32,000 bases of DNA, taken from NCBI RefSeq assembly GCF_009617975.1, contig NZ_CP040089.1, forward strand, positions 660,001 through 692,000, in the 5' to 3' direction. Position numbers and translations under genes: made by a program. The stretch comes from Candidatus Nanohalobium constans. Lineage in GTDB: Archaea > Nanohalarchaeota > Nanosalinia > Nanosalinales > Nanosalinaceae. The notes under the pieces are model-generated. The model ran no database searches, was not told where the DNA came from, and saw only the letters and a program-made list of their open reading frames with translations. Below, piece by piece: positions 1 through 12,778 of this stretch (position 1 is the first letter of the stretch; each line of letters starts with the position of its first letter).

Positions 1-747
1 CTTTTCACGAGTGGCAGAGGCGATGTTTACGGCTTTTTCCCTGAGATCATTCGCTATAGGAACTTTTCTAGTGAACTCTTGCAAACGGATCAGAGAAGAG
101 CGACTGATAACATTCTCAAGCTCTGGCTCAAAGTCCAGCTCAGAGGTAAACCGGTCTACGATTTTGTTCTCTTCCTCGAGGCTTGGATAATCTAGTTCAA
201 CCTTCATCATGAAACGGTCTCTCTGTGCTTCCGGCAATGGATATGTTCCTTCCTGTTCAATCGGGTTCTGCGTAGCCATAAGGAAGAACGGGTCATCCAG
301 GCTGTAAGAATTGTTGCCTACAGTTACCTGCTTCTCCTGCATCGCCTCAAGTAATGCGGACTGCGTTTTAGGAGTAGCACGGTTAATCTCATCCGCTAAA
401 ATCATGTTAGCGAAAATAGGTCCTTTTTGGAATACGAAGTCAGTTGTATCTGCCGATTCATCGACTATATGCGTACCTGTGATATCGGACGGCATCAGAT
501 CCGGCGTATTCTGTATACGGGAGAACTCCAGACCTAAAACTTTTGATATAGTGCTTATCATCTTTGTCTTACCCATTCCCGGGTTTGACTCGAGAAGTAT
601 GTTCCCATCGCAAAGTATGGATATCAGGACCTGCTCTATAACATCTTCCTGACCGACCATTACCTTTCCTACTTCTTCCTTGACCTGCGCAAGGCGTTCA
701 TTCGCTTTATCGTACTTGCCGGATTCATCCATACTGCTTACTTTCAT
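1..747 (-). CDS. moxR: MoxR-like AAA+ ATPase; the 3' end runs off the window and the N-terminal ~249 aa are visible
   Basis: My own translation of the minus strand from the ATG at 747 (alternative ATG at 732). It reads MKVSSMDESGKYD...VGQEDVIEQVLISILCDGNILLESNPGMGKTK (Walker A), ...MILADEINRATPKTQSALLEAMQE (Walker B), ...FFLMATQNPIEQEGTYPLPEAQRDRF. It is absent from the ORF track because there is no stop codon inside the window. Confidence 0.9.
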   Translation of the reverse strand, partial: MKVSSMDESGKYDKANERLAQVKEEVGKVMVGQEDVIEQVLISILCDGNILLESNPGMGKTKMISTISKVLGLEFSRIQNTPDLMPSDITGTHIVDESADTTDFVFQKGPIFANMILADEINRATPKTQSALLEAMQEKQVTVGNNSYSLDDPFFLMATQNPIEQEGTYPLPEAQRDRFMMKVELDYPSLEEENKIVDRFTSELDFEPELENVISRSSLIRLQEFTRKVPIANDLREKAVNIASATREK

Positions 748-766
748 AGAAAATTACTAGACCACG

Positions 767-806: not shown

Positions 807-1550
807 TTAACCCGAGTCCCTGATAGCCAGGCTATACCTTCTCGCCAACTCAACATCCTCCGGCATACTAGGATCAGAAGACCGGAAAACAAAATCCTCA
901 GAAGCCCCGGAACCACCAGAACCGTCAGAACCTCCACTAGCATCGCCAGTAACATTTATCTCAAGATCAGTAGCAGAGCCCTGAATATCCTTAGCCTCAC
1001 CATAAATCTCAGACCCATTCTTCAACTGCTCAGGCTCAGGATTAAGTATATCCTCAGGCTGCAACTGAGAGAAAACCTCCCTACTCTCCTGCACAGGCTG
1101 AAAATCAGTTAAACCAGACAAAGCAGTCAAAAAACTCAAAACACCTATCAAAACAATCTTCTTAATAATCTCGGCCCCCGGAATAATACTCTCAGAAGTA
1201 ACACTCCTCGCCCTCTGCATCAAATCATCAAACATCGCCTGAGAAACAACATTCTGACTATCCAAATTATCCCGCGCAGTCCTCAAAATCTCACGGAGCT
1301 GAGGATTCTCCTCCTCATAAATCTCCAACCTATACTTCCGAGAACGATAAACCCAATCAGCCAAGAGAAAGATGAAAGCTGAGGCTGCTAAGATCCGGTA
1401 ATGTAGAAAATCACTGACAAGAGTAATATTCAAAATAAACAGGACAAGGTTTACAGCTAGAAAGGCTGTTAACGAGTCCAGGAAAGCCTGGATAAGATTG
1501 ACCTTGATAAATTCTCTTCGAAGCCGCTTAAGCAGTTTCTCAACCCTCAT
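807..1550 (-). CDS. Membrane protein of unknown function, upstream of moxR in the same operon
   Basis: ATG-started ORF of 247 aa. It has hydrophobic segments (LTAFLAVNLVLFILNITLV, ILAASAFIFLLADWV, IVLIGVLSFLTALSGL) and an acidic, Gly/Ser-rich C-terminal tail. Its start overlaps the upstream gene by 11 nt. Confidence 0.7.
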   Translation of the reverse strand: MRVEKLLKRLRREFIKVNLIQAFLDSLTAFLAVNLVLFILNITLVSDFLHYRILAASAFIFLLADWVYRSRKYRLEIYEEENPQLREILRTARDNLDSQNVVSQAMFDDLMQRARSVTSESIIPGAEIIKKIVLIGVLSFLTALSGLTDFQPVQESREVFSQLQPEDILNPEPEQLKNGSEIYGEAKDIQGSATDLEINVTGDASGGSDGSGGSGASEDFVFRSSDPSMPEDVELARRYSLAIRDSG

Positions 1551-2010
1551 TGCTTGTTCCTACCTCATGACCCCATCGATTACAGTTATGCTCTGCTCCA
1601 GAACCTCCAGAGCTCTCCGCACATACAACACTCATAGAAGAGTTAATATCATTTAGAGTATCCTCTAAATCCCTGCTTTCCCGAGCATTCTCAACCTCAC
1701 TCTCCAACTCAGAAATCCTATCATTTTTCTCATCAACAGTATCACTCAAGTTCTGTTTCTCAGCCCTCAACTCACCTAAATCTCCCTCATACTCACGAAG
1801 CTTAACAGACATGTTGGAAACACGGGCATCCAACCGAGTTACTTCAGTATCCAAACTGTTTCTCTCTTCCTTGAGTTCGCTGATCCTGTTCTGTTTATCG
1901 CTGATTTGATCCTGAGATAAAACTGCAACACCCGCCAAAAGCGAAAGAGCAGCTACGGTAGAGATCAGGAGCAGCGGGTTCAGCCGTCGTTTCAAAAGTG
2001 GTTGAGCCAT
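1540..2010 (-). CDS. N-terminally membrane-anchored coiled-coil protein, unknown function
   Basis: ATG-started ORF of 156 aa. It has one N-terminal hydrophobic helix (LLLISTVAALSLLAGVAVL) followed by heptad-like charged sequence (ISELKEERNSLDTEVTRLDARVSNMSVKLREYEGDLGELRAEKQNLSD). It is the first gene of the operon that ends in moxR. Confidence 0.7.
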   Translation of the reverse strand: MAQPLLKRRLNPLLLISTVAALSLLAGVAVLSQDQISDKQNRISELKEERNSLDTEVTRLDARVSNMSVKLREYEGDLGELRAEKQNLSDTVDEKNDRISELESEVENARESRDLEDTLNDINSSMSVVCAESSGGSGAEHNCNRWGHEVGTSNEG

Positions 2011-2099
2011 TACTAAACAAAAAATTGTATTGCCAGGGTTTTAACCGTTTATGCAGAAGAGTCCCAATTTTAAGTAAAACCTAAACCAATCACTACTTG

Positions 2100-3764
2100 A
2101 TGAGCCACGGTGGCAAACCCGGAAAAACCTGCAAGTTCGGACATGTCTTCAAGGCTTGGGAAGAAGGTAGCAACGATGATCTGCAGAAGAAGATAGAGAA
2201 CGGCGAAGTTCAGCACTTGGACGATTTTGGCGAAGGCGAATCCCTGATGAGTATGCTGAACCGGTGGAAATACTTGAAGTTCCGTTCAAGCGATCAGGGA
2301 ACAGCTTACACAGGAATGTGGGTAGCCGTCGATGAACTAGACTCAAGCCTAGATTACGAAATAAACAAGATTTCCGAATCAATCCATATCTCCCCTCAGA
2401 GCCAGATGCACGCCCAGTTCATGGAGAGAAAACAACAGGCGGAAAACAATATTAAGCAGACGATGCAGAGCTACCAACAACTGGAGAAACAGAAGCACAT
2501 GCTTCAACACGATATCAGAAAACTGAGGTCTCGAGTAGAAGCCATCAATTCACATGACGAAGTACTTTTGAAAGGAGACTTCATCGAACTGGTCGATGGA
2601 GCAGGACAAAGTCCGCGGCAGGGCGGTGATCAGATGAGTTTGAAAGCTTACAGAGACCAGAACATCTATCCCTCCATAGTAGCAGACTTCAACGAGATGG
2701 AAGGCGTTGAGGACCTAGAAACTGCAGAGCAGCGAGCCAAAAGATACGATGACAAGGACGAAGACGATCTAGAGGATGGTCCCCTGGCGGACATACCTAC
2801 AAACGAGAAAGCCGTGCTGAAGAAGAAATGGAAGATGTACGAAAAATGGAAAGACCTCTACGGCTCCGAAGTCGAAAGAAAATTGAACGATCTGAAAGGA
2901 CAGATGAAGAACATTCAGCGATCCATCGAAGAAACAGAGGAATGGTTGGAGCCCTATGTACGGGACGCCGCGATGATAAACAGGATGGGCGACGACCAAG
3001 CCCAATTAACCTCAAATCTGAATATCCGCGGCAATTCCACAATGTTCCGAACCATAGACTGGATCGTCCACAAAGGAATGCGGCTGCACGAAGGAGAAAT
3101 GATGATAGCAGACGAACTAGACGAAGAACCAACGCACTACCGCGTAATGATGATTAAAACCATCCACGCCAACATCGCAGGATTCTCACAGCCACAAACA
3201 CCTGCAGAAGGACCATCAGCCGGAATAGTAATGTGGTACCCCTTCTTCACATGCAAACACGTCTTCGACAACTTCGTACAACCTAAGATCGATAAGCATG
3301 AAAAACTGGTTGAAGACATGATGGACGACTACACCGGCAAATTCGAAACTAAAGAAGGCGATAAACTGAAGGAAGCCAGAAACGACGAAGAAATGTCAGT
3401 CCGAGAACTGAGAGAAAAAGTAGGAGAAAAACTCGACGACGATGAAAAAGCACCAATACAGCTCTCATCAGACATCAGAAGAGTGGAAGACGGACTAGAA
3501 ACAGCCACAGAAGCAATAAACGACAAATACCTCAAAAAAATCGATGAGATACTAGATATAGAACTCCATCCAGACAATCAAGACAGCGACAACGATGATG
3601 ACATGTACGAAGGCTTCTCCAAAACCCTAAGAGAATTCACAGGCCAAACCGACGAATTCAAAATACCTTCCGGCTGTAAACCTCTCGACGACTTCACCAC
3701 AGAACTACGGTACAACTACTACTGGGGATTGAAACTAGACTTCGGAATGTACACAATGAAATAG
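2100..3764 (+). CDS. Large acidic protein with coiled-coil stretches; no family recognised
   Basis: Long ORF; the ATG at 2100 follows the TTG used by the ORF track. A TTTTAAGTAAAA TATA-like element lies about 25-30 nt upstream. Coiled-coil-like runs include QFMERKQQAENNIKQTMQSYQQLEKQKHMLQHDIRKLRSRVEAI and ERKLNDLKGQMKNIQRSIEETEEWLE. The C-terminus is aromatic (YNYYWGLKLDFGMYTMK). Codon usage resembles that of the atp genes. Confidence 0.75.
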   Translation: MSHGGKPGKTCKFGHVFKAWEEGSNDDLQKKIENGEVQHLDDFGEGESLMSMLNRWKYLKFRSSDQGTAYTGMWVAVDELDSSLDYEINKISESIHISPQSQMHAQFMERKQQAENNIKQTMQSYQQLEKQKHMLQHDIRKLRSRVEAINSHDEVLLKGDFIELVDGAGQSPRQGGDQMSLKAYRDQNIYPSIVADFNEMEGVEDLETAEQRAKRYDDKDEDDLEDGPLADIPTNEKAVLKKKWKMYEKWKDLYGSEVERKLNDLKGQMKNIQRSIEETEEWLEPYVRDAAMINRMGDDQAQLTSNLNIRGNSTMFRTIDWIVHKGMRLHEGEMMIADELDEEPTHYRVMMIKTIHANIAGFSQPQTPAEGPSAGIVMWYPFFTCKHVFDNFVQPKIDKHEKLVEDMMDDYTGKFETKEGDKLKEARNDEEMSVRELREKVGEKLDDDEKAPIQLSSDIRRVEDGLETATEAINDKYLKKIDEILDIELHPDNQDSDNDDDMYEGFSKTLREFTGQTDEFKIPSGCKPLDDFTTELRYNYYWGLKLDFGMYTMK

Positions 3765-3772
3765 GCGATAAA

Positions 3773-6490
3773 ATGGCAAACTTCATACTAGAACGGATGA
3801 AAGAGAAATTCGGCGGAGACGACGAAGAAGACAAAGAGAAAGGCTTCCCCGACATGAACTACCTGATCGGCAACTCTTCTGCGATGGATGTGGGAGAAGT
3901 ACCGACACCCATGGACCAGAGAATCGGCTACGCAGCACAAGTAGGCGGCAGCGTCATGGAACTCCAAATCACCAACCCCGCCACATTCACACTAGAAAGA
4001 GACTCCATGATCTCCACAATCCACCAACTAGGACTCGACATAACAACACACCCAGACATGAACGCAGGATTCTGCACAGCAGAAAAAAGCGCCCGAGGAG
4101 AAGAATACGGATACGACACAACCGAACAATACTTCACAAACTACCTCCAAGAACTAGCACAATTCAAAAAACACGTCGAAAAAATGGGCAAAGACGACGA
4201 ACCACTCTTCAACATCGGTCGAATGAACCCACACATCTCCACCTCACCTATGCCAGCACTCGAAGAAAGAATGGCCAACGACGTAGGACTAGACCCATTC
4301 GGATACGAAATAAACAAATACGACGAAGACAGCATCAAAAAAAGAAACTACAGAGGAGAAAACATCTACAAAAACCCTGAATTCCTCAGAAAATTATACC
4401 ACACGCTTTTTTTAGAAATATCTAACTATCCTTTCCAACAATATCAAAGCTTCTCTACATATTCAGATACATTCGATATCAAGTGGAGAAAATCTCAACA
4501 TGAGGCAGCAAAGCAACTTTTCCATGATGAAGCAGACGATATCTCTGACAAGTTGGGAACTATATTAACAGGAAGAAGACAGGATCAAGGAGTTGGAAGG
4601 AAGTGGCTAGAAATACTTGACCAAGAGATAGAGCTAGAAGTTGCATTTCCTATACTCGCTCCAGATATAGAAAGAGACGATCAAGGAAATCCAACAACTT
4701 ATAATGGAGTTATTCAGGAAGAAATTACCAGTTTGAAGCAACTACTCACTCAAAGATATGCGAGAGCGGAAGAAAGTCCCCCACCATTACAGAGAATGGA
4801 CAATGTACTTTATCAAATAGAAAGTCTATCGATAGATGATTTAGCGCCTTTTAATCAAATTCCAGAGGAATATAGAGAAAGGTTCAGACAAGATGTAGCC
4901 TCTAAGGTAGATATCAAGCAAGTCCGAGACTCAACATTAAATGCTATAGGAACCGCCTTCGATAAGCTATGGGATGGAAAGAGTCCGGATCCCGAAGATC
5001 AATACATGTCTCAAGATGCAAAATGGAGCGGTCTACAGAGCCATTTAGAAATCCAACAAATCAGATTATTAGAGAATGCTTACAAAATTGGAAAAAATGA
5101 ATACAATATTGAAGAAGAGGCTGCTACGGTCTTTGCGGGAAAAGACTTAAGCAAATTCGATGCAAGCGACCGGGAAGACATGGATGAGGAAGATATGCAC
5201 GAGGATCTCCTCGAGCGTATTTTACAGGGCCAACAGTTTCAGCGTGAGATGTGGAAGGAGTCGATTATTTTTTATTTGATTATTCCGGCTTGGATGTCTT
5301 CTTCAGATGAGGTTGAGAATGATGATCATGAGGGTTGGGATGCTCCTCGATTTATTTGGGAGAGTATTGTGGAGGAAAGATGGGGTGATAGGGATGATGT
5401 CAATTTAGATTTAGAAAATCCTCGTAACGGTGTTTATGAGGATAAAGACGATGATGATAAGGAGGATGTGTACCATTACTTGGATTTATTAGAGGATAAT
5501 CCTGAGTTCCAGCGTGATGTGGCTGCGGCTGTTGGTGCTTGTTATTGTTGGGCTCATTTTACTCAGAGGAAGGCTAAGTTTGATTTGAAGGGTCGTGACT
5601 TTGGTTTGAGTGATGATGAGGTTGAGGAAGTTCAGAATGAGGGTTGGACTTGGGTTGAGTGGATGAATCGTTTTGGTATTGGTGTGAATTTGGAGACTAT
5701 GGCTGGTAGTCCTCAGATGCGGTTTAAGGTGTGGCGTCCGAAGGATATTGCTGTTGCTGCTCATGCGATTAATTTGACTACTAGAAGGATGTTTGAGGAG
5801 AATGGTGAGTTGGGCGGTTTGGAGGAGTTGAATGATGAGATTGATGGGCGTCCTGCTAAGTTTACGATTGATATGGAGCATGTTGCTTCTCTGGGTGCTC
5901 CGCCTTTGGATGAGATGGAGAGATTTTTCGAGATGGAGGAGTACCTGGCTGATTCTGACTGGGCGCTGGATATTGACTCTGAGAAACCTGTAGCAAATAT
6001 TCTGCGGCAGATGCACTTGATGGATCCAGGTGTTGAAGGTCAGAGAGGTACGCACCACGGAGCTTTTGAAAGAGGCAATGAACTACTGTATAAATGGCTT
6101 TACAGGTTTGTGGACAACGGTTTTACCCGGAATGAGAACGAGCCGTCCACGATACTGTTTGAGCTAGCGGAGCATAAAGCAGAGTCCAGCTACATGATGC
6201 GGCTTACAATGAACCTAATTGAAATAGGTGTAACACCTGAAGAACTGGACCCAAGCAATGTAACACCAGGAGAAGAACCAGAAGACGAGAGAGAAGCTAT
6301 GATCGCCCGATTCTTCGGAATGGAGCAAGCCAACTACAGCCGCGAATGGGCAAAAATCGAGGAACACGCCTTCGACCCACTGAAAGGACTGTTAGAAGCC
6401 GAAGAATTCGATTACACTTTCTCAAGTAAGGCAGCTGTTGACCAAGGACAGAACAGACCTCAAGAATGGCAAGGCGAAGAATATCAGTAG
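3773..6490 (+). CDS. 905-aa hyper-acidic protein; putative xylose-isomerase-like/AP-endonuclease-2-type TIM barrel interrupted by a very large insertion
   Basis: The ORF starts 8 nt after the previous stop. N-terminal motifs are GGSVMELQI, LGLDITTHP and MNPHIS. C-terminal motifs are FTIDMEHV (D700/H703), QMHLMDP..THHGAFERG (H748/D751) and ILFELAEH (E797). Their order matches the metal-ligand strands of this TIM-barrel superfamily. The family call is from memory and was not searched. Confidence 0.6.
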   Translation: MANFILERMKEKFGGDDEEDKEKGFPDMNYLIGNSSAMDVGEVPTPMDQRIGYAAQVGGSVMELQITNPATFTLERDSMISTIHQLGLDITTHPDMNAGFCTAEKSARGEEYGYDTTEQYFTNYLQELAQFKKHVEKMGKDDEPLFNIGRMNPHISTSPMPALEERMANDVGLDPFGYEINKYDEDSIKKRNYRGENIYKNPEFLRKLYHTLFLEISNYPFQQYQSFSTYSDTFDIKWRKSQHEAAKQLFHDEADDISDKLGTILTGRRQDQGVGRKWLEILDQEIELEVAFPILAPDIERDDQGNPTTYNGVIQEEITSLKQLLTQRYARAEESPPPLQRMDNVLYQIESLSIDDLAPFNQIPEEYRERFRQDVASKVDIKQVRDSTLNAIGTAFDKLWDGKSPDPEDQYMSQDAKWSGLQSHLEIQQIRLLENAYKIGKNEYNIEEEAATVFAGKDLSKFDASDREDMDEEDMHEDLLERILQGQQFQREMWKESIIFYLIIPAWMSSSDEVENDDHEGWDAPRFIWESIVEERWGDRDDVNLDLENPRNGVYEDKDDDDKEDVYHYLDLLEDNPEFQRDVAAAVGACYCWAHFTQRKAKFDLKGRDFGLSDDEVEEVQNEGWTWVEWMNRFGIGVNLETMAGSPQMRFKVWRPKDIAVAAHAINLTTRRMFEENGELGGLEELNDEIDGRPAKFTIDMEHVASLGAPPLDEMERFFEMEEYLADSDWALDIDSEKPVANILRQMHLMDPGVEGQRGTHHGAFERGNELLYKWLYRFVDNGFTRNENEPSTILFELAEHKAESSYMMRLTMNLIEIGVTPEELDPSNVTPGEEPEDEREAMIARFFGMEQANYSREWAKIEEHAFDPLKGLLEAEEFDYTFSSKAAVDQGQNRPQEWQGEEYQ

Positions 6491-7154: not shown

Positions 7155-8417
7155 ATGAGTTCTAAGGATAAAATGAAAGAAATGCGTGAAAAGTCCCAGG
7201 AAAGAAGGATGGATTCTGCACAAGAGTTCTCAGACAAACTACTAGATAAACTCGGCGACAAAGTGAAAGTAGTAGCCGTCTGGGGGAGCGTTGCCAAAGG
7301 AGAGCACGGACACGACTCAGATATCGATACACTTGTTGTTTTAGATGATACTAAATTACAGAAAGATGTTCCTGAAGATGCTAAAAAGAAGATTAGGAAA
7401 AAGGTTACAGACCTTGCTAAGGAAACAGATGATAGAATTACTATCCAGTACTTCCCGTTCCTTACCGAGTTCTGGGACTCACTTAGGAAAGGAGAACCTC
7501 TAGCTATCGAAGCCGTGCGTAACGGCAGCCCGGTATACGACACAGGGATCTTTATGCCAGCTAAAAGACTGCTGGAAAGAGGAAAGATCAGTGGAACACA
7601 GGAATCAGTCAAGAAAAGATTGAAACTTGGTGCAGCAGGATACAAGAAAGCAGAGAAAACGATGAAGTCTTCACTTCCTCACAAACTCGAACAGGCAATG
7701 GCTAACGCCGGTCAGGCACCAATCATGCTTTCAGGAGCAAATCCTCCTCCAAAGGAGAAAGTTCCAGAGAAGCTTGAGGAAATGTTTGTAGAGCAGGATA
7801 TGCTTGAGCAGGAGTATGTTGACATGGCTCAGGAAATCTACGACTTCGGTGACAAAGGTGAGAAAAATCCTGAGGAAGTGACTGGTGAAGAACTAGATGA
7901 GATGATGGAGAAGACAGACGACTATGTCCGAAGAATGCACAAGCTGGTCTCTCAGATGGGTGCAAAGAAGAAGGTCAGAGGACTGGTCGACGACTACAAG
8001 AAGTTCCTCAAGGCCAATGTCGCAGCACTCAGAGCACAAGATGTCGAACCACCGGAAGACAAGGACGACCTCCCACAGGTAGTAGAGCAGAACCTTGATG
8101 TCGACGAAGAACACCTGGAAATGTTCGACAGATGGGAGAAAGTAGTTGAAAAAGTCAAGGAGAAAGAGATGGACGACCTAGAAGACAAAGAAATCTACGA
8201 GCTCAAGAACGAAACCAGAGAATTCGTCAAGAAAGTAGGCAAAGAGTACCAAGAAATGAAGGAAGAGAAGACGGAGGAAGCAGAGAAGATGGCACCAGAC
8301 ATGGACACCACCTCAGTCGCCAAAGCAGCAGACACAGAGGAAATGGTTCCAAACCTTCAGGAAAAAGCTGAGAAAGAAGTAGAAAGTGAAGAAGACTCTG
8401 AGGAGGAAGAAAAGTAA
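7155..8417 (+). CDS. Pol-beta-superfamily (minimal/KNTase-like) nucleotidyltransferase with a long acidic C-terminal extension
   Basis: The N-terminus carries the classic motif VVAVWGSVAKGEHGHDSDIDTLVVLDD (GS...DxD). This is followed by a helical region and an E/K/D-rich tail of about 150 aa ending in ESEEDSEEEEK. Confidence 0.8.
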   Translation: MSSKDKMKEMREKSQERRMDSAQEFSDKLLDKLGDKVKVVAVWGSVAKGEHGHDSDIDTLVVLDDTKLQKDVPEDAKKKIRKKVTDLAKETDDRITIQYFPFLTEFWDSLRKGEPLAIEAVRNGSPVYDTGIFMPAKRLLERGKISGTQESVKKRLKLGAAGYKKAEKTMKSSLPHKLEQAMANAGQAPIMLSGANPPPKEKVPEKLEEMFVEQDMLEQEYVDMAQEIYDFGDKGEKNPEEVTGEELDEMMEKTDDYVRRMHKLVSQMGAKKKVRGLVDDYKKFLKANVAALRAQDVEPPEDKDDLPQVVEQNLDVDEEHLEMFDRWEKVVEKVKEKEMDDLEDKEIYELKNETREFVKKVGKEYQEMKEEKTEEAEKMAPDMDTTSVAKAADTEEMVPNLQEKAEKEVESEEDSEEEEK

Positions 8418-11646: not shown

Positions 11647-12720
11647 TTAACTCTGAACTTCACTCATAACCTTCTCTGCTATCTCCTGATTGTTTTCTCC
11701 CTGCATCAACAGGTGTGAGTTGCCTTCTATGCCCATGTCTGGTAGTGAGATCATCTCTGCTTCTCCACCGTTCTCGTTGATGAGGTCGATGGTTGTTTCA
11801 CATGCCTGTTTTCTACCTGTCTGTCCTCTTTCTTGGACGTAGTCGCCGTAGACTGCGACGAACTCCGTGCCGCTGAACACCTGGCTTTCTGTTTCAGGAC
11901 ATCCAACAGGTTCAACAGCGACTAAGGTCTCAATAAGCTCAGGCCTCTGCCTTGCTACCTCGAAACCTGTGGCTCCTTCCGCCGAGTGAACGATTACTGT
12001 TGCAGGACCGGTTCTTTCAAGTAGATCGATCAGTGCTTCTGTGGAGGCCTCCGAGCCGAAGCTCATGCCTCCCTGAGCTGAACCTTGACTGCTTCTTCCT
12101 GACTGTTGACTCTGTCCTGAGAGGTTTCCATCGAACTGCCCACCTTGACCTTCAGTTCTACTAGACTGACCTGAAGCTCCTCCCTGTCCTGAACGGGTCG
12201 ATGTGTACTGCGGGAAGTTATCCTCAAGTTCCTGAATCTGGCTGACAGGATACTTGCTGTCGTCGTAAGCTTCTCCCTGTTGTGGTCCGAAGCCCCACTT
12301 GCTCCACGCACGACCAAGACTCCACTGAGATGTACTTACTGAATCATCCACTGTCTCATTCGAGTCGACGATGTTCGGCGGATTGTAAACATAAGAAGTG
12401 TACCCTTTCTCATCGAATATCTGAGCCCAGCCATCTCTATCATCCGGAGTATCCGTGTAAATATACTCGTCAAGGCCTAGACCCGGAACCATCACGACAG
12501 GATCGCCGCCTTCCGAATCACTGAACTTATACACTTCCGCACGCTCCTGAGGGCCTTCACCACCGACAAAAAACACCTCTTCAACGCTACTCTCCGTCGA
12601 ACCATCACCTGAGGCCTGTAAAGCCATCAAAGCCGCGACCGACACAATAGACAGGAAAAAGACCGTTAACACGATTTTAGTAGACTCGTCCTTCAACTTA
12701 TTGAAATAGTTCTCTTTCAT
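11647..12720 (-). CDS. Membrane-anchored alpha/beta-hydrolase-like protein with an internal Q/G/S-rich low-complexity insert
   Basis: I trimmed it to the ATG at 12720 (MKENYFNKLKDESTKIVLTVFFLSIVSVAALMAL, a signal/anchor sequence). A GGTTTAAATCC TATA-like box lies about 25 nt upstream. It contains DPVVMVPGLG and a nucleophile-elbow-like VIVHSAEGATG. The fold call is tentative. Confidence 0.55.
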   Translation of the reverse strand: MKENYFNKLKDESTKIVLTVFFLSIVSVAALMALQASGDGSTESSVEEVFFVGGEGPQERAEVYKFSDSEGGDPVVMVPGLGLDEYIYTDTPDDRDGWAQIFDEKGYTSYVYNPPNIVDSNETVDDSVSTSQWSLGRAWSKWGFGPQQGEAYDDSKYPVSQIQELEDNFPQYTSTRSGQGGASGQSSRTEGQGGQFDGNLSGQSQQSGRSSQGSAQGGMSFGSEASTEALIDLLERTGPATVIVHSAEGATGFEVARQRPELIETLVAVEPVGCPETESQVFSGTEFVAVYGDYVQERGQTGRKQACETTIDLINENGGEAEMISLPDMGIEGNSHLLMQGENNQEIAEKVMSEVQS

Positions 12721-12757
12721 ACCCAGAAACAGTTCACAGGGATTTAAACCCTCCTCT

Positions 12758-12778
12758 CCCAACTAACACCCAAATTCA
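12758..12778. repeat. Copy 1 of a 21-bp direct repeat, CCCAACTAACACCCAAATTCA
   Basis: It matches 14020..14040 at 20 of 21 positions, with 15 consecutive identities (TAACACCCAAATTCA). On the minus strand it contains two ATTTGGG/AGTTGGG half-sites 11 nt apart, directly upstream of the TTTAAA box of the hydrolase gene. Confidence 0.6.

Follow-up and report, generated by a model that had tools for sequence, protein, structure and literature searches.

What might two adjacent and very long genes do in an archaeon with a very small genome, when neither product resembles an annotated protein? The question is raised by a 32,000-nucleotide stretch of the Candidatus Nanohalobium constans genome (contig NZ_CP040089.1, positions 660,001 to 692,000; hereafter, the window), in which open reading frames (ORFs) A and B are followed on the same strand by a third, C (Table 1). 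The genomes of DPANN archaea are very small, and no function has been assigned to a large share of their conserved genes; here, 5.6 kb of a 0.97-Mb genome is given over to a three-gene module that is kept across two phyla and whose three proteins are all uncharacterised. The reading that we favour, and regard as reasonably probable, is that B is a divergent, split-barrel enzyme of the PF01261 superfamily with an active site of the endonuclease IV (Endo IV) type, and that it belongs to a module formed by A, B, and C.

An earlier note on this DNA had drawn attention to two long ORFs of 554 and 905 amino acids lying 8 nt apart, and the ORF listing confirmed both ORFs and the spacer (3765–3772). 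Judged by their homologues, A and B are real genes and not chance ORFs, because 61 full-length homologues were found for B (at 36–65% identity) and more than 190 for A. The note had also described both proteins as hyper-acidic. This is correct numerically (isoelectric points (pI) of 4.83 and 4.44 for A and B; 20–21% Asp plus Glu) but not distinctive, because it matches the median pI of the window proteome (4.77 for 20 ORFs); the acidity is the proteome background of a salt-adapted halophile and is not special to either gene. The expectation that both proteins are novel was borne out by direct searches, in which A and B matched no annotated family in Pfam or NCBIfam. The A and B families are absent from both databases and are annotated as hypothetical, with occasional automatic labels such as 'sugar phosphate isomerase/epimerase', 'transcriptional regulator', and 'HTH' (helix-turn-helix). 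Our literature search found no paper on this family and nothing useful on Endo IV or DNA repair in Nanohaloarchaeota or Aenigmatarchaeota.

In both fold and superfamily, B is very probably a xylose-isomerase-like (AP endonuclease 2, PF01261) TIM barrel. Its AlphaFold2 model, built with 33 homologues in the input, had a predicted local distance difference test score (pLDDT) of 85 and a predicted TM-score (pTM) of 0.81 and contained eight barrel strands arranged as 4 + 4 on either side of a long insertion (Table 1). The earlier note had proposed just such a barrel with an insertion larger than the barrel itself, and both the model and the profile links described below agree with it. All the motifs that it quoted are present (VMELQ at residues 61–65, DITTH at 89–93, NPH at 152–154, FTIDMEH at 697–703, QMHLMD at 746–751, THHG at 760–763, and ILFE at 794–797), and its strands β2, β3, β4, β6, β7, and β8 are correct in the model, whereas β1 (30–35) and β5 (638–641) had been missed. 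The insertion itself exists, but it spans about residues 185–635 rather than 200–690, and it is folded and partly conserved rather than a stretch of unassignable acidic sequence. It was modelled with confidence (pLDDT of about 90), and the conservation analysis divided it into a variable core (residues ~240–390), a further variable segment (541–570), and conserved blocks at 480–540 and 571–600, which include H595 (45/47). These and the following conservation counts refer to 47 members of the B family. The span from H154 to E641, which bridges the insertion, is 487 residues in the B protein of the window and 190–487 residues across the family; its presence in all 47 members indicates that the insertion is ancestral to the family and has been expanded to its largest size in the Nanohaloarchaeota.

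Behind the barrel lies a C-terminal tail whose residues 862–905 were modelled with low confidence (pLDDT < 50) but which ranks among the best-conserved parts of the family and contains the motif E-H-A-F-D-P-L-K-G (H865, 45/47; D868, 41/47; P869, 47/47; G872, 41/47). The family ends in E-E-(Y/L/F)-(R/K/Q), always with two acidic residues followed by Y, L, or F and then R, K, or Q. From this pattern, the tail looks like a docking peptide or one that completes the active site. In principle, there is precedent for a barrel that is broken up by an insertion exceeding its own size. Eukaryotic phosphoinositide phospholipase C is a metal-dependent phosphodiesterase with a TIM barrel split into X and Y boxes, between which PLC-gamma carries a multi-domain array; the analogy to B is architectural only, as phospholipase C belongs to an unrelated superfamily, has Ca2+ catalytic residues, and is eukaryotic.

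The superfamily assignment was reached through distant relatives. Full-length B had no match in Pfam (PF01261 included, at E up to 1), NCBIfam, PHROGs, or the PDB sequences, and eight nanohaloarchaeal B sequences from which the insertion had been cut out had no PF01261 match in Pfam at E up to 10. A profile of the nanohaloarchaeal B proteins found only a spurious phage baseplate match among the PDB sequences (E = 1.2). When the same profile was run with hmmsearch exhaustively against 1.84 billion representative proteins, 111 proteins were recovered. Some 70 of them are distant relatives of 500–750 amino acids, with matches (E = 1e-15 to 5e-4) confined to the C-terminal third of the profile. 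PF01261 matched 21 of the 47 family members (E up to 0.05), and six of 10 members tested scored above its Pfam gathering threshold (34.3–55.6 bits vs 31.1); these six (P0241, P0243, P0246, P0259, P0262, and P0287) had been found by the nanohaloarchaeal profile at E = 9e-8 to 5e-4. In the distant members, positions 7–89 of the PF01261 profile correspond to the N-terminal halves and positions ~108–248 to the C-terminal halves, and the insertion point therefore lies between β4 and β5. The distant members examined are not acidic and have a common layout of half-barrel, helical insertion, half-barrel, and tail, the last ending in ...EHA(F/L)DPLKG...PEEWKKEE(L/Y/F)(R/K). According to the source names of the records, from which the phyletic range of this branch was taken, all distant members with an organism name come from Candidatus Aenigmatarchaeota. 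The A–B pair, which the earlier note had taken for orphans, also occurs in that phylum.

The residues conserved in B are those expected of a metal site. H93, H154, E641, D700, and E797 were found in all 47 family members, and H762 (46/47), H748 and E702 (both 45/47), and H703 (41/47) were nearly invariant. Among the six ligands put forward in the earlier note, D700, H703, H748, and E797 hold, whereas the column of E63 contains either E (21 members) or Q (20 members) and D751 is not conserved among the 47 members; the list also lacked the invariant H93, H154, and E641 and the near-invariant H762. To compare these residues with E. coli Nfo, we used ligand numbering checked on the real nfo gene sequence (H69, H109, E145, D179, H182, H216, D229, H231, and E261), and the canonical nine-ligand metal pattern of Endo IV was confirmed from PMC13113976. 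In hhalign, full-length B gave no significant alignment with Nfo (E = 0.18), being disrupted by the insertion. Once the family had been widened and the insertion columns removed, the B profile aligned with Nfo from end to end (250 columns, E = 8.4e-5). In this alignment, H93 and H154 of the N-terminal half were paired with H69 and H109, and in the C-terminal half, E641 was paired with E145, D700 with D179, H703 with H182, H748 with H216, H762 with H231, and E797 with E261; thus, eight of the nine Endo IV metal ligands are aligned with invariant or near-invariant columns of the B family. The hhalign score was 37.9 for Nfo, 29.9 for UlaE, 22.4 for Hyi, and 22.0 for YcjR, against a background of 13.8–19.3 for unrelated proteins and 13.0 ± 1.6 for shuffled Nfo, and Nfo was the best-scoring of the four superfamily members tested. 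These pairings suggest that the active site of B is probably of the Endo IV type, rich in His, Asp, and Glu and binding two or three metal ions at the C-terminal ends of the strands.

Endo IV (Nfo/Apn1; E. coli Nfo, PDB 1QTW; PF01261) and B resemble each other in the (β/α)8 barrel, in the strand order of the ligands (His on β3, His on β4, Glu on β5, Asp-x-x-His on β6, His on β7, a loop His, and Glu on β8), and in the local motifs ID(M/T)(E/C)H, MHL(M/N)D, and HH...G(N/D). They differ in that Nfo is a compact single domain of 285 amino acids with no obligate partner genes, whereas B has an insertion of 190–487 residues and a conserved tail of 50 residues, and in that D229 of Nfo is not conserved in the B family and its DNA-wedging Y72/L73 are not visibly conserved in the alignment. 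No Nfo-specific NCBIfam model matched any of the 47 members, and no PDB chain of Nfo was found with phmmer or with the family profile. The sole NCBIfam barrel match was to CbiR (NF041277), in three of the 47 members and weakly (best E = 1.2e-3), and the B protein of the window was not among them. The most fitting description of B is therefore a multi-metal PF01261 protein that is Endo IV-like but does not belong to the Nfo family proper. CbiR is a cobamide-remodelling phosphodiesterase of the same superfamily, which acts on a non-DNA phosphodiester and needs its conserved His/Asp/Glu metal ligands (PMC7733943). It shows that the fold supports phosphodiesterase chemistry on small-molecule, nucleotide-like substrates (PMC7733943), but unlike B, it is bacterial, has no large insertion, and is encoded in cobamide-biosynthesis loci. 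From the aligned ligands and the modelled fold, B is most likely a multi-metal phosphodiesterase.

The setting of B is also conserved. Synteny was counted over the assessable cases in a non-redundant set of nanohaloarchaeal loci, 44 of them from GTDB species representatives. A lay upstream of B on the same strand in 39 of the 40 loci and C lay downstream of B on the same strand in 41 of 42; in both counts, the sole exception was L053, which contains a partial second copy of B. A was present in five of the six loci of the distant branch, as was C. The co-occurrence and adjacency of A and B, which the earlier note had proposed to check, were thus found in both groups. The unit is not one of two genes, as the note had it, but includes C. 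A–B–C is a conserved co-directional module that occurs in two DPANN phyla, in almost all of the nanohaloarchaeal loci sampled and in Aenigmatarchaeota. The three proteins probably act in one pathway or complex. All three are soluble, with no signal peptide or transmembrane segment (maximum Kyte–Doolittle values of 0.72–0.83 vs 2.1–2.5 in membrane-protein controls).

The sequence of C identifies it as a nucleotidyltransferase (NTase) of the Pol-beta superfamily: it matched PF01909 (NTP_transf_2) at E = 3e-10, its best PDB sequence match was the N-terminal domain of kanamycin NTase (6e-5), and it is orthologous across both phyla (1e-45 to 1e-54). It has the N-terminal G-S...D-x-D core of the minimal and kanamycin-type Pol-beta NTases (PF01909), but unlike them, the proteins of the C family are 400–490 amino acids long, have a long, helical, acidic C-terminal region, and form an orthologous group of their own that is tied to A–B. 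The canonical archaeal CCA-adding enzyme was considered as an identity for C and rejected, as no CCA-enzyme structure was matched.

A is a soluble protein, and its AlphaFold2 model (pLDDT 74, pTM 0.56) shows a long helical hairpin but no fold that could be recognised. The model contains two very long helices, at residues 102–150 (49 residues) and 234–294 (61 residues), and a β-sheet domain. The earlier note had described A as a coiled-coil protein without recognisable family, which agrees with our results, but its aromatic C-terminal strand is a predicted helix (residues 528–547). No family match for A was found in Pfam, NCBIfam, PHROGs, or the PDB sequences, nor any match in PADLOC, and a search of its model against the PDB and a viral fold library returned only generic coiled-coil or tail-fibre-like matches with TM-scores below 0.2. 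A cross-phylum profile of A detected no annotated remote relative in a large protein search, the matches of which were saturated by nanohaloarchaeal orthologues. The homologues encoded directly upstream of B in the distant loci were recognised with hhalign (E = 8e-54, 9e-9, 2e-13, 8e-22, and 1.5e-9), and residues invariant across the phyla form an L-x-H-D-x-R-K motif (L135, H137, D138, R140, and K141) and include D166, P191, D196, F197, K243, W250, and P285. NCBI labels A as an XRE/MBF1-type HTH protein. Full-length A had no HTH match in Pfam or NCBIfam, and the segment 418–482 had weak matches to HTH_19 (three of 21 members, best 0.0097), HTH_31 (3/21), and HTH_3 (1/21), with an XRE-type regulator as its best PDB match (E = 0.21). 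The label probably reflects a weak XRE-like segment at residues 430–466, which is confined to the Nanohaloarchaeota and lies outside the region common with the Aenigmatarchaeota.

Several points weigh against the reading of B as an Endo IV-type enzyme in a module with A and C. The superfamily membership of the B protein of the window rests on transitive profile links and a predicted structure, with no direct match. In the Foldseek search of the B model against the PDB, the top matches were all TIM barrels, led by ketose 3-epimerases and YcjR, and they were weak (best E = 0.017, over only ~145 columns), as expected when a local aligner meets a split domain. For the ninth Endo IV ligand, D229, the family offers no conserved equivalent: the position is His in 23 of the 47 members (as an HxH motif) and Thr in the B protein of the window. 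Of the DNA-intercalating or flipping residues of Nfo (R37, Y72, and L73), Y72 and L73 are aligned with M96 and N97 of B, the second of which lies in a variable column, although the alignment of loops is unreliable at such a distance. The E-D-H-E subset of the ligands is also used by sugar epimerases, so the chemistry is not proven; the convergence of the ligands on a common metal site is presumed, and a physical interaction among A, B, and C is read from gene order alone.

The most serious of the alternatives, which we consider rather unlikely, is that B is a sugar or sugar-phosphate isomerase or epimerase, as most PF01261 proteins are, with a single Mn, Co, or Zn ion held by the tetrad E641-D700-H748-E797 and with the insertion and A serving regulation or oligomerisation. 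The fold and the Glu-Asp-His-Glu tetrad on β5 to β8 are indeed held in common with the sugar enzymes of PF01261 (D-tagatose, D-allulose, and L-ribulose 3-epimerases, UlaE, YcjR, and Hyi), and the tetrad is invariant or nearly so in the B family. The L-ribulose, D-allulose, and D-tagatose 3-epimerases and YcjR are also the leading Foldseek matches, UlaE aligned over its full length in hhalign (E = 1.4e-3), and two distant members carry the JGI label 'sugar phosphate isomerase/epimerase'. However, four further conserved His residues (H93, H154, H703, and H762) are paired with ligands of the first and third metal sites of Endo IV, and the insert-less profile scored Nfo above UlaE, Hyi, and YcjR. 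The genomic context points the same way: the conserved partner is an NTase and not a sugar kinase, transporter, or dehydrogenase, and the neighbours of the distant loci encode ribosomal proteins, Trm1, and TFIIB. The distant-branch setting is an information-processing neighbourhood, with a Trm1-type tRNA methyltransferase gene near the module in L008 and L010, a TFIIB gene in L008, L010, and L011, and ribosomal protein genes in L006, L007, and L009. No PF01261 sugar epimerase or isomerase known to us carries a comparable insertion or is paired with an NTase.

Several defence architectures resemble the combination of an NTase with a nuclease-like barrel and a coiled-coil protein, and A–B–C might be an anti-virus or conflict system in which C makes a signal or modifies a target, B is a nuclease effector, and A is a coiled-coil sensor. 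The NTase domain of C matched candidate-defence NTase models of PADLOC (PDC-S09, E = 2e-11) and, weakly, an 'oligonucleotide-cyclase' model (2.7e-5), but these matches cover only the generic minimal-NTase core, and no PADLOC-DB v2 model was matched by A or B, whether those of the window or those of the distant loci. Defence islands are usually patchy and mobile, whereas the module shows uniform vertical inheritance in a stable chromosomal setting, with one full copy per locus, in 44 species-representative genomes and across two phyla, and no mobile-element genes lie nearby; we therefore consider a defence role very unlikely. Least credible of all is the role suggested in the earlier note, in which A and B would have no enzymatic activity and serve as structural, surface, or host-interaction proteins, possibly serviced by the MoxR chaperone operon (a link that the note had itself flagged as speculation). 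In its favour, the proteins are large, with long helices in A, they are conserved in host-dependent DPANN lineages, and a divergent moxR gene lies beside them in the window and in 19 of 37 nanohaloarchaeal loci. With adjacency in only about half of these loci, and with moxR absent from L001 and from all aenigmatarchaeal loci, a functional link to MoxR was rejected. In addition, A, B, and C have no signal peptide or hydrophobic segment, and the residues that do not vary between the phyla are exactly those at the catalytic and metal-binding positions of an enzyme superfamily already known.

If B is an Endo IV-like phosphodiesterase, it would hydrolyse a phosphodiester bond through a metal-activated water, as Endo IV does, with the help of two or three metal ions. 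Its insertion would lie over the catalytic face and, probably with A, select the substrate that is admitted, and C would add or transfer a nucleotide in the same pathway. The substrate class is most likely a nucleotidyl phosphodiester, either the 3' end or a lesion of a nucleic acid or a nucleotidylylated molecule. We put forward nucleic acid, as ends or lesions, as a tentative candidate for the B substrate, the main alternative being a nucleotidylylated protein or metabolite. A broader proposal, possible but on the unlikely side, is that A–B–C constitutes a previously unrecognised housekeeping pathway of Nanohaloarchaeota and Aenigmatarchaeota in which C and B act in opposition or in sequence on one substrate, as a switch or in end-healing. 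In the first, writer/eraser form, C would add a nucleotide (e.g., AMP) to a target, possibly A itself, and B would remove it. The second, a possible end-healing or tailing form, would have B clean blocked 3' ends of RNA or DNA and C extend them. In either form, the insertion of B and the new fold of A would provide a substrate-selecting platform.

With these assignments, two 'hypothetical proteins' become a testable prediction: a multi-metal phosphodiesterase with eight named ligands, accompanied by an NTase and a partner of unrecognised fold. The catalytic fold and site are already known; what is new is the architecture, an unusual one in which an Endo IV-type barrel carries between β4 and β5 a domain larger than the barrel in the nanohaloarchaeal members, together with the obligate neighbours, one of which has an unrecognised fold. 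If the substrate is a nucleic acid, the module could represent a lineage-specific repair or RNA-processing route, and if it is a nucleotidylylated protein or metabolite, the activity would be new to the superfamily. For expression, the orthologues from the non-halophilic Aenigmatarchaeota should prove more tractable than those of the halophiles.

Table 1. Features of the A–B–C locus, in positions of the window (residue numbers are those of the encoded protein)
Feature	Position	Strand	Details
MoxR AAA+ ATPase gene	1–753	-	cut off by the start of the window
DUF7502 gene	807–1550	-	member of the divergent MoxR-side operon
156-aa coiled-coil/transmembrane gene	1540–2010	-	member of the divergent MoxR-side operon
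Divergent intergenic region	2011–2099		89 nt between the MoxR-side operon and ORF A; sequence read directly
ORF A	2100–3764	+	554 aa from ATG at 2100 (ORF listing: 2097/2100–3764)
ORF B	3773–6490	+	905 aa
B, N-terminal half-barrel	3842–4324	+	residues 24–184; β1 30–35, β2 61–65, β3 89–93, β4 148–151, then H154; codons H93 4049–4051, H154 4232–4234
B, insertion between β4 and β5	4325–5677	+	residues about 185–635; mostly helical, with a long β-hairpin (287–320)
B, C-terminal half-barrel	5678–6340	+	residues 636–856; β5 638–641, β6 695–700, β7 744–748, β8 792–796; codons E641 5693–5695, D700 5870–5872, H703 5879–5881, H748 6014–6016, loop residue H762 6056–6058, E797 6161–6163
B, C-terminal tail	6341–6487	+	residues 857–905; low-confidence structure, strongly conserved sequence
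B, inverted synonymous codon block	5237–6055	+	273 codons, residues 489–761; from the G/T fraction at third positions
ORF C	7155–8417	+	420 aa; NTP_transf_2 at residues 26–102; helical, acidic C-terminal part

The divergent operon with moxR described in the earlier note is real, consisting of the 156-aa gene, the DUF7502 gene, and the MoxR gene on the minus strand, and in the relatives L002–L004, it continues with DUF58 and metallophosphoesterase genes. In the intergenic region that separates it from ORF A, an A/T-rich, TATA-like element, AATTTTAAGTAAAA, lies ~25–35 nt upstream of the start codon of A and may act as its promoter. Between B and C, a small minus-strand ORF (6491 to about 7100) is convergent with B, with the two stop codons abutting, and has no Pfam match; its listed TTG start (7645) overlaps C, which places the true start further in. 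A comparable minus-strand gene of 268 amino acids occurs between B and C in L003 and L004, and the gap from B to C measures 0.5–0.9 kb in many loci.

Part of the B gene is written in a different set of synonymous codons. In the block listed in Table 1, G or T occupies the third position in a fraction of 0.88 of the codons, vs 0.32 in the rest of the gene, and Ile is encoded by ATT in 13 of 13 cases, Gln by CAG in 7 of 7, Gly by GGT in 16 of 18, and Glu by GAG in 29 of 33. The switch affects every codon family, and the first and second positions are unchanged. The same bias on the coding strand was found in the whole DUF7502 gene (0.84), in the 156-aa gene (0.70), and in the 5' part of the gene at 11647–12762 on the minus strand; the ATP synthase A and B genes had values of 0.29–0.33. 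The B orthologues of the Nanohalobium clade (L012, L015, and L016) have the block at the same position (0.71–0.77 inside and 0.33–0.41 outside), and it is missing from the B genes of the more distant genomes compared. Candidate causes are a run of non-preferred codons that would slow translation before the barrel closes and a local, strand-specific mutation bias. An antisense ORF of 189 amino acids (5489–6058, minus strand) was considered as a gene and rejected as a very unlikely one, being a by-product of the block: in that region, nearly all antisense codons have A or C as their first base and so include no stops. Its product would contain hardly any residues other than I, M, T, N, K, S, R, L, P, H, and Q; with a pI of 10.5, it is the sole strongly basic ORF in an acidic proteome.

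Some individual members of the B family and their loci deviate from the common pattern. In P0259 (L010, 6001–7854, Candidatus Aenigmatarchaeota), an N-terminal glutaredoxin domain (PF00462, E = 3e-10) is fused to the split barrel, and NCBI names the whole protein 'glutaredoxin' because of it. The fusion suggests possible redox control; CbiR, from the same superfamily, is reported to be oxygen-sensitive and to require dithiothreitol (PMC7733943). On scaffold GL982567.1 of Candidatus Nanosalinarum sp. J07AB56, the full A–B–C module is present in L051, with A split into two ORFs, and a second, partial B (residues ~519–899; L053, 5430–7131) without A or C lies ~30 kb away; it may represent a paralogue, a pseudogene, or an artefact of assembly. 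In L041 (5989–8433), B occupies two adjacent ORFs, through either a frameshift or a sequencing error, and in L049 (5995–7788, Nanosalina J07AB43), the match to B is shorter by ~900 nt, and C follows at a distance of 3.6 kb downstream. The 48-kb contig of L038 (JBLGBK010000006.1) has the complete nanohaloarchaeal arrangement of MoxR and A–B–C and was deposited as part of a 'Colwellia polaris' metagenome-assembled genome, and L044 is labelled 'uncultured euryarchaeote'; both public records look like binning or labelling errors.

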